A stretch of DNA of 64,000 nt from the NCBI RefSeq assembly GCF_003334405.1, contig NZ_QOWM01000001.1. One strand, given 5' to 3'. The translations under genes were made by a program, and so were the position numbers. The DNA is from Escherichia coli (GTDB lineage: Bacteria > Pseudomonadota > Gammaproteobacteria > Enterobacterales > Enterobacteriaceae). This document shows, one piece after another, positions 29,430 through 30,567 of this stretch (position 1 is the first letter of the stretch; every line of letters begins with the position of its first letter). The notes beneath the pieces are model-generated. The model was given only the letters and a program-made list of their open reading frames with translations, was not told the origin of the DNA and ran no database searches.

Positions 29430-29469
29430 TATCAAAGGCCCATGGGGATCGGCTGTGGGCCTGTGTTAA

Positions 29470-29655
29470 TTAGTGGTTATTCGCTGCCAGATCGGCTTCG
29501 CTTAGCTGGGTGGCCGCGAGCACCTGGTCACGATCAAAGCCCTGTTCCAGCATGCGCAAAGCAATTTTAATGGCTTGTTCATGCAAACCTTCTAATTTAC
29601 CTTCCTGCCAGCCAATTTGATGTCCTTCCTGCCGCAGCCGTTCAGCAATAGTCAT
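29470..29655 (-). CDS. ypaA: YpaA, free-standing duplicate of the RpnE C-terminal module
   Basis: 61-aa ORF whose DNA and protein closely match the last 56 codons of rpnE; identical SD/ATG context AAAAGGAGAGATTAATGACT. Confidence 0.7.
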   Translation of the reverse strand: MTIAERLRQEGHQIGWQEGKLEGLHEQAIKIALRMLEQGFDRDQVLAATQLSEADLAANNH

Positions 29656-29667
29656 TAATCTCTCCTT

Positions 29668-30567
29668 TTAATGACAGTTCGGAATATCAGCATCAGTGAG
29701 TTGGGTTGTCGCCAGCACAATCTCACGTTCAAAGCCCTGCTCCAGCATGCGCAAAGCAATTTTAATGGCTTGTTCATGCATACCTTCCTGCCAGCCAATT
29801 TGATGCCCTTCCTGCCGTAGCCGTTCAGCAATAGTCATTAATCTCTCCTTTTGTAGTGGTGAACGTTCGGCAATCTCCTCAATAAAACGGGTGAAACGGG
29901 AGGTATCGCCGCATTGCAGCAGATAATTAAACAGTGTTTGTAGCTGGCTGTCATTAGTGAAGCCTCTAACCAAAAGCGTGGTGATCCTGTCGACCATGCC
30001 GATTAAATCGCGGTCGCGAATATGCTTTTGAATCAGTTCCAGCAGAGCTATACGCCGATGTTGCATGATCTCATCGTCAGGTACGATGGTGATATCCACC
30101 AACGGAAAAGCTTCGGTGTACAACTGCCGGGCAAGTTGCGGATCGTCAAACTCATCCAGCCAGTTGAGTGAGTACGGGTAAGGCGAGGTTTCGCCATGAT
30201 AAAACAGCAACGGCACCACCAGCGGGACTCTGTCATAGCCTTTGTCCAGGTGACGCTGCATGGCGGCAGTGGCATAGCGCATTAGCCGAAAAGCCATATT
30301 CTTTTCTGCAGAGCTTTGATGTTCAATCACGCAGTAGATATAGCCGTCACCGTCGCTGGTTTCCACGGACCACAAAACATCCGAGTAGTAAGCGCGTAAA
30401 CTTTTTTCAATAAAACTAGTGGGTTCCAGGCGTAAGGTTTGCAGGTTGCAAAGCTTGCGCAGTGGTTCTGGTAAATGTATTTCGAGAAAATCCCGTGCGG
30501 TTTCGGGTGTGAACATAAAGGTTTTAAATACCGCATCATGCGGGGAGGAGGTTGTTGATTCGGTCAT
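29668..30567 (-). CDS. rpnE: Rpn-family (YhgA-like, transposase_31 / PD-(D/E)xK-type) recombination-promoting nuclease
   Basis: 299 aa, recalled as K-12 YfaD/RpnE; internal in-frame ATG at 29836-29838 preceded by GGAGAG. Confidence 0.85.

Follow-up and report, generated by a model that had tools for sequence, protein, structure and literature searches.

The rpnE locus of Escherichia coli is, in all likelihood, the known intragenic toxin-antitoxin-type module, in which the gene for a putative nuclease carries the in-frame start of its own small protein and is accompanied by a duplicated small-protein gene, ypaA. We analysed this locus in a 64-kb stretch of E. coli DNA (hereafter the window) and compared it with the corresponding loci of other genomes. 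A sequence-only reading of the window had proposed that rpnE contains an internally initiated C-terminal ORF and that this ORF recurs in tandem as ypaA. Both the internal antitoxin start and the ypaA duplication are correct and were already known from studies published in 2019 and 2023. Added here are the exact boundaries of the duplicated unit, its prevalence, the selection acting on it, an exact deletion chimera between the two copies, and a near-universal mismatch in repeat number between RpnE and YpaA.

The Ribo-RET data of Meydan et al. (2019) show in-frame initiation peaks inside each of the five E. coli rpn genes, and the authors pointed out the likeness of the RpnE internal product to the independent gene ypaA (10.1101/520783). 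Use of the internal starts in K-12 has been documented by Ribo-RET, Onc112 and SPA tagging (10.1101/520783; PMC10400941). For RpnA, RpnB and RpnC, Zhong et al. (PNAS, 2023) established that the RpnS small proteins are antitoxins, which bind and block the toxic RpnL proteins, and they solved the structure of RpnA_S (PMC10400941). Hypervariable four-amino-acid repeats are located in the RpnS dimerisation helix (PMC10400941), and in the case of RpnC, one extra repeat in RpnC_S abolished neutralisation unless the toxin carried a matching number (PMC10400941, Fig. 4D; commentary PMC10400984). Protection against phage was reported for the plasmid-encoded RpnP2 only (PMC10400941). The same authors renamed ypaA as rpnE_Ss, inferred its origin from rpnE, detected both RpnE_S and YpaA as SPA-tagged proteins, described that rpnSs genes can be lost via deletion or fusion, and suspected a phage factor behind the repeat variation (PMC10400941). 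The main text of that paper makes no mention of a repeat mismatch between RpnE and YpaA (PMC10400941).

The Shine-Dalgarno-to-stop module of rpnE is repeated in tandem as ypaA

On the minus strand of the 64-kb window, the gene order is glpC, rpnE and ypaA, followed by the convergent yfaU. The rpnE gene (yfaD; positions 29668-30567, minus strand) encodes the 299-aa protein RpnE_L, which consists of an N-terminal PD-(D/E)XK nuclease domain (PF04754) and a C-terminal HTH_Rpn_C domain. Within it, the in-frame internal ORF rpnE_S (29668-29838, minus strand; 56 aa plus stop, zero four-aa repeats) begins with an ATG at 29838-29836 and ends at the rpnE stop codon. This ATG is preceded by a Shine-Dalgarno sequence and spacer, AAAAGGAGAGATTA (29839-29852, minus strand), which also form the 5' edge of the first repeat unit; the GGAG motif is positioned 6 nt from the ATG and represents a strong Shine-Dalgarno with good spacing. 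The proposal that the last 56 codons of rpnE open with an ATG behind a strong Shine-Dalgarno is hence confirmed to the base. The second copy, ypaA (rpnE_Ss; 29470-29655, minus strand), is a free-standing S module of 61 aa with one four-aa repeat (KLEG) and a diverged tail. The junction between the copies (29656-29669, minus strand) consists of the ypaA Shine-Dalgarno and spacer, again AAAAGGAGAGATTA, which begins within the rpnE TAA stop codon and shares the final two bases of that codon, leaving an intergenic gap of 12 nt.

Both starts share one 30-mer, AAGGAGAGATTAATGACTATTGCTGAACGG, and so have the identical Shine-Dalgarno-ATG context that had been read from the sequence. This 30-mer is present in exactly two copies in the window, at 29821-29850 and 29638-29667, and none was expected according to 100 shuffles. 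A repeat search revealed two direct-repeat pairs that define the duplication: one of 72 nt with 97% identity and a spacing of 183 nt, and one of 102 nt with 84% identity and a spacing of 195 nt. The difference in spacing corresponds to a clean 12-nt insertion in ypaA, AATTAGAAGGTT (29587-29598, minus strand), which was located by aligning the copies at the hypervariable position of helix 1 and provides YpaA with its extra repeat. It interrupts an ATG codon and thereby results in KLEG plus an M-to-L change. The tandem unit measures 183 nt in rpnE_S and 195 nt in ypaA and extends exactly from the Shine-Dalgarno to the stop codon, with nothing upstream of the Shine-Dalgarno included. An ACCACTA microhomology at the unit boundaries was considered as the origin of the duplication and dropped, because the junction that it predicts is not the one observed.

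The two copies share 87% identity overall, and their divergence is mosaic: the first 116 nt hold four differences, the final 55 alignment columns 24 (maximum chi-square of 44, reached in 0 of 5,000 permutations). The tandem copy is therefore real, while its description as about 185 bp of near-identical sequence overstated the similarity; the four-codon KLEG insertion and the diverged tail, on the other hand, had been recognised correctly. The Shine-Dalgarno is conserved as AAAAGGAGAGATT[A/G] wherever the module is retained among the sampled E. coli loci, as well as in E. fergusonii and a cryptic-clade Escherichia. Locus L011, which is cut off by IS2, is without it.

A terminator scan found no terminator within the 12-nt gap between rpnE and ypaA. 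From this result and the short gap, and from these two features only, we infer that ypaA is most likely co-transcribed with rpnE. A GC-rich hairpin lies between the convergent ypaA and yfaU genes (29436-29462; terminator scan match on the plus strand). As minus-strand RNA it folds with -12.1 kcal/mol (z = -2.1) and its T-run on this strand is weak; it is probably the end of the rpnE-ypaA transcript. A simple scan for sigma-70-like promoters between 29300 and 30800 returned no site, and an internal transcription start is cited from dRNA-seq by Zhong et al. (PMC10400941).

Throughout both small ORFs, the window sequence is identical to that of K-12. Translation from both starts, which the sequence-only reading had put forward for experimental mapping, is documented in K-12 by initiation peaks (10.1101/520783) and by immunoblots of SPA-tagged RpnE_S and YpaA (PMC10400941). 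The repeat alignments together with these published K-12 experiments establish ypaA as a tandem duplicate of the internally started C-terminal isoform.

RpnE retains the catalytic residues of Rpn nucleases

Profile searches placed RpnE firmly within the Rpn family. Residues 8-209 matched Pfam PF04754 (Transposase_31, YhgA-like; E=7e-88), and the protein scored 699.5 bits against the NCBIfam equivalog NF007418 (cutoff 583) and 173.5 bits against TIGR01784 (cutoff 52.1). RefSeq labels rpnE as an 'ISNCY family transposase'. Residues D11, D63, E82, Q84 and R94 and the PDDEI motif, which are essential in RpnA (Kingston et al., PMC5350276), were all retained in the window allele and in 26 other alleles. 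A search against PADLOC-DB 2023 matched neither RpnE nor YpaA; this library is without Rpn models and the result is uninformative on function.

In published assays of toxicity, SOS induction and recombination, K-12 RpnE showed no activity (PMC5350276). Since it was non-toxic in all assays, toxin activity of RpnE is regarded here as putative. The window protein, which has the consensus residues L107 and P155, differs at these two positions from K-12 RpnE (Q107 and L155), and the two K-12 substitutions are private to that strain. Because the only RpnE allele assayed carries these two private substitutions, the reported inactivity may not be representative of the species.

The restraint of Rpn-family nucleases by a small isoform, mentioned in the sequence-only reading, has been demonstrated for RpnA, RpnB, RpnC and RpnP2 (PMC10400941). 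By analogy with RpnA, RpnB and RpnC, RpnE_S would pair via its long first helix with the identical C-terminal domain of RpnE_L and block the nuclease. The RpnE_L nuclease would then stay inactive until triggered, perhaps by phage infection.

YpaA resembles the crystallised antitoxin RpnA_S

When aligned with the crystallised RpnA_S (PDB 7TH0), the start of rpnE_S coincides with residue 1, and the only gap in the alignment is at the repeat site. The same structure was the best PDB sequence match of YpaA (E=3.4e-4), and YpaA aligned to positions 244-308 of the NF007418 profile with E=3.3e-31. An AlphaFold2 model of YpaA (mean pLDDT 72.9) comprises three helices, a long one spanning residues 3-37 and two short ones. 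Foldseek ranked 7TH0 first among the matches of this model (probability 1.00, target-normalised TM-score 0.70), and all other matches were insignificant (E >= 2), the weaker ones being helix-turn-helix repressors. Against Pfam-A, YpaA gave no significant match in a release that predates PF27070; this family, HTH_Rpn_C, is recorded on YpaA homologues in precomputed annotation. NCBI names the domain 'Rpn/YhgA-type helix-turn-helix domain'.

YpaA residues 1-19 are identical to RpnE_S, as are residues 25-40 following the repeat, which correspond to RpnE_S residues 21-36. [quoted passage not shown]

RpnE and YpaA differ in repeat number in nearly all combinations

Across strains, the number of four-aa repeats varied from 0 to 8 in both RpnE and YpaA. 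Written as (RpnE, YpaA), the window has the combination (0,1), which looks like the commonest two-copy type, going by an evenly spaced sample. In total, 15 combinations were identified: (0,0), (0,1), (0,5), (1,4), (2,5), (3,1), (5,0), (5,1), (5,2), (5, odd variant), (6,2), (6,4), (6,5), (8,4) and (8,6). The numbers were unequal in 14 of them, the single matched combination being (0,0), which was found in one genome and through a targeted query only. A targeted query for (5,5) in 5,426 genomes retrieved none; for both of these synthetic haplotype queries, the match spans were too noisy for a full census. Twelve of the 26 look-up loci (L022-L027, L029, L030, L033, L035, L037-L039) derive from metagenome assemblies, in which repeats could be mis-assembled.

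If fast-changing repeat numbers paired at random, the 15 combinations should include about 1.7 matches, and the one match observed does not amount to significant avoidance of matched numbers. Genome-level counts of mismatches are unusable, because the lineages are not independent. The mismatch is a fact and not evidence of selection.

These repeat numbers bear directly on whether YpaA acts as a true second antitoxin, in line with the antitoxin-like role suggested in the sequence-only reading. Such a protein would bind RpnE_L in trans and supply either an extra dose of inhibitor or one with different stability or regulation. Several observations fit such a role, namely the homology of YpaA to the solved antitoxin RpnA_S, the two segments identical to RpnE_S, the position of ypaA 12 nt downstream of rpnE on the same strand, the production of YpaA in vivo (PMC10400941), the purifying selection on ypaA described below, and the existence of one matched (0,0) genome. 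In contrast, YpaA has one repeat and RpnE none in the window, the two numbers are unequal in 14 of the 15 combinations, and a single extra repeat was enough to end the action of RpnC_S on RpnC_L (PMC10400941, Fig. 4D). The window pair accordingly lacks the repeat match that a cognate antitoxin of the RpnC type has with its toxin. We consider a true second antitoxin possible but doubtful: in RpnC a difference of one repeat put an end to neutralisation, and by analogy YpaA is unlikely to serve the RpnE encoded beside it simply as a further antitoxin. The repeat-match rule was established for RpnC only and may not transfer to RpnE and YpaA. Because YpaA has one repeat more than RpnE in the window, we infer that it probably forms its own homodimer and not a complex with RpnE_L.

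A different possibility is that YpaA acts elsewhere than on RpnE_L, either as a helix-turn-helix DNA-binding regulator of the locus or as a sensor of, or decoy for, some phage factor directed against RpnS-type proteins. Such an activity would agree with the helix-turn-helix-like domain indicated by the NCBI name, by Pfam HTH_Rpn_C and by the weaker repressor fold matches, with the phage factor that Zhong et al. suspect of driving repeat variation (PMC10400941), and with a mismatch that leaves YpaA free to form homodimers. However, a repeat search and the promoter scan detected neither operator-like repeats nor a promoter near the locus, and the fold matches other than 7TH0 were, as described, insignificant. 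We regard an action of this kind as improbable.

The two copies recombine

In single-copy genomes, rpnE ends in a YpaA-type tail. The single-copy alleles are polyphyletic: for each of them, at least one two-copy allele is nearer than any of the remaining single-copy alleles. The clearest example is strain DLI.5a, whose nuclease domain is that of the window (0 differences in 699 nt) and whose single S module is an exact chimera, with its 5' part from the rpnE copy and its 3' part from the ypaA copy of the window. The crossover lies within a 41-nt identical stretch 3' of the repeat site. Judged by its sequence, this locus (L008) is the product of a 195-nt deletion through homologous recombination. 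In addition, a 60-nt block of five repeats is identical at 59 of 60 positions between rpnE of (5,x) genomes and ypaA of (x,5) genomes, and hybrid tails were found among the sampled loci. These allele comparisons indicate that the rpnE_S and ypaA copies recombine, giving rise to deletion fusions as well as to transfer of repeat blocks.

ypaA is widespread and under purifying selection

The rpnE gene was detected in 5,421 of 5,426 complete E. coli genomes, and the junction of rpnE stop, Shine-Dalgarno and ypaA start in 3,132 of the 5,426 (58%), being absent from about 42%. Two copies are also present in E. fergusonii and cryptic-clade Escherichia, and the duplication therefore predates E. coli.

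To assess conservation of the small proteins, both small ORFs were extracted from 48 loci. Wherever the two start sites are retained, their Shine-Dalgarno and ATG are conserved, and the ORF, Shine-Dalgarno and ATG of ypaA were intact in all sampled two-copy loci, including those of E. fergusonii and the cryptic clade. Length changes in ypaA were multiples of 12 nt, rare variants excepted. With repeats excluded, the mean pairwise dN/dS of YpaA was 0.08, between the values of the nuclease domain (0.06) and RpnE_S (0.13); for the ypaA-specific tail alone it was 0.12, with dS of about 0.10. These low ratios indicate that ypaA is constrained, that is, under purifying selection. The low dN/dS of the 5' part of ypaA could partly stem from gene conversion by rpnE, yet the ratio stays low, at 0.12, in the tail that is specific to ypaA.

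In most of the genomes sampled, RefSeq labels ypaA a partial pseudogene ('incomplete; missing N-terminus'). This label would suit a ypaA that is a decaying relic of faulty duplication or recombination, with no function of its own, as would the lack of the gene in about 42% of the complete E. coli genomes and its repeated loss via recombination. Against such decay stand the intact ORF, Shine-Dalgarno and ATG in every sampled two-copy locus, a constraint on ypaA, its specific tail included, that equals the constraint on the nuclease domain, length changes that (rare variants apart) come in 12-nt steps, and the detection of YpaA protein in K-12 (PMC10400941), so that a functionless remnant appears very improbable. 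The RefSeq annotation is misleading on both genes, as ypaA is expressed and under purifying selection and rpnE is called a transposase.

Across species, the rpnE-type tail showed no synonymous variation, and the tract of low divergence reaches back from this tail to about nt 420 of rpnE. An overlapping regulatory element in the tail was considered as a cause; in this small sample, the extent of the tract looked more like introgression.

Discussion

Our analysis places rpnE and ypaA next to three known kinds of system. Like the RpnL/RpnS systems exemplified by RpnA (7TH0), RpnE is a PF04754 protein of the PD-(D/E)XK type with all catalytic residues kept, contains an in-frame Shine-Dalgarno-ATG start that yields a three-helix C-terminal protein with the same opening residues as RpnA_S, and has the hypervariable four-aa repeat site in helix 1. 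It differs from these exemplars in that its toxin, antitoxin and defence roles are assigned by analogy and its K-12 allele was inactive (PMC5350276), and in that rpnE is located between the metabolic genes glpC and yfaU, outside any defence island. The second kind are the rpnSs genes, which include rpnC_Ss of certain E. coli strains and DUF4351 (PF14261) genes of other species; ypaA is their named example rpnE_Ss (PMC10400941). All features of this class are found in ypaA, which is a separate gene downstream of its own rpn, is expressed, varies in repeats and may disappear through deletion or fusion, and we see no difference in kind.

The third comparison is with hsdS shufflons and with pilin or antigenic-variation cassettes, in which an expressed gene is likewise flanked by a partial homologue and recombination alters a C-terminus that determines specificity. 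The rpnE-ypaA pair is not a member of this group: it is without a recombinase and without inverted repeats, its copies are direct, its recombination events are deletions and conversions over evolutionary time, and ypaA itself is translated.

Returning to the intragenic module with a duplicated small-protein gene, ypaA is a tandem duplicate of the Shine-Dalgarno-to-stop module and is probably read from the same transcripts as rpnE. It may be maintained as another C-terminal or specificity module, available to rpnE through recombination, or as a binder of something else. As a tentative and rather unlikely extension, YpaA could be deliberately non-cognate, a maintained module whose recombination with rpnE re-assorts repeat block and tail and resets the toxin-antitoxin specificity of RpnE, and in the meantime free YpaA homodimers might act as decoys for a phage factor directed at RpnS proteins.

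The principle of antitoxins encoded as genes within genes is important, yet it has been published with the RpnE locus among its examples. The near-universal repeat mismatch reported here turns the function of YpaA/RpnE_Ss into a sharp question that is cheap to address. If YpaA is indeed such a non-cognate module, ypaA would be a cassette through which a defence nuclease slowly switches its specificity by recombination.

Annotation and integrity of ypaA

The NCBI pipeline labels ypaA, the tandem copy of the C-terminal S module of rpnE, a pseudogene in the majority of complete E. coli genomes (RefSeq records of comparison loci L001-L020 and L040-L045), with the wording 'incomplete; partial in the middle of a contig; missing N-terminus', and the same pipeline gives rpnE the product name 'ISNCY family transposase'. 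Despite this label, the ypaA ORF is intact and under purifying selection (dN/dS 0.08), and, contrary to it, the YpaA product has been detected by experiment. One ypaA variant (L045, NZ_AP022298.1, 1204-1434; protein P0032) carries a separate in-frame duplication of 11 codons, which lies within helix 1/2 and not at the 4-aa repeat site.

A GC-rich hairpin was located by terminator scan and RNA folding at 29436-29462, between the convergent ypaA and yfaU genes. It was rated terminator-like for yfaU, on the plus strand; the minus-strand RNA has a folding energy of -12.1 kcal/mol, but the U-run after it is no more than weak.

Recombination between the two copies

A natural single-copy allele in strain DLI.5a (L008, NZ_CP103972.1, 1083-1256) is an exact recombinant of the two copies in the window haplotype. 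The crossover maps inside module nt 58-98, and the event removed 195 nt, leaving an RpnE that has gained the YpaA tail and retains 0 repeats. Matched repeat numbers in RpnE and YpaA (0,0) were found in a single genome, that of strain BHUCD02 (L044, NZ_CM183444.1, 961-1317), whose hybrid rpnE tail, an 11-residue stretch leading to ADIPNCH, suggests from its sequence a recent conversion between the rpnE and ypaA copies. In strain UTME-10 (L011, NZ_CP157104.1, 1054-1698), an IS2 insertion cuts rpnE off after ~211 codons, and both the S module and ypaA are lost.

Conservation of the rpnE-type tail

The final 60 nt of rpnE (29671-29730 in the window; 1426-1485 in both L046 and L048) are the same in E. 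coli, E. fergusonii, and a cryptic-clade Escherichia, the sole exception being a C/T site in the last codon. The nuclease domain diverges by 4-9% among the same species, and the ypaA tail has also diverged. The six E. coli tail alleles showed 0 synonymous and 5 nonsynonymous differences. The low-divergence tract of rpnE seems to start at ~nt 420. Introgression could account for it, as could a constrained element lying upstream of where ypaA starts.

Private substitutions in the K-12 allele of RpnE

Comparison with the MG1655 record (L021) showed that the window does not come from K-12, in whose RpnE L107Q (CTG>CAG; codon 107, 30247-30249) and P155L (CCG>CTG; codon 155, 30103-30105) are found. 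L107 and P155 are present in the window and in all other 25 alleles examined. Other K-12 laboratory strains listed in the rpnE comparison likewise showed 99.8% identity (2 mismatches in 1,181 nt). One of the two K-12-private changes is located 8 residues ahead of the PDDEI motif. Only the K-12 version of RpnE has been assayed to date, and it was inactive (PMC5350276); the private substitutions are a candidate cause of this inactivity.
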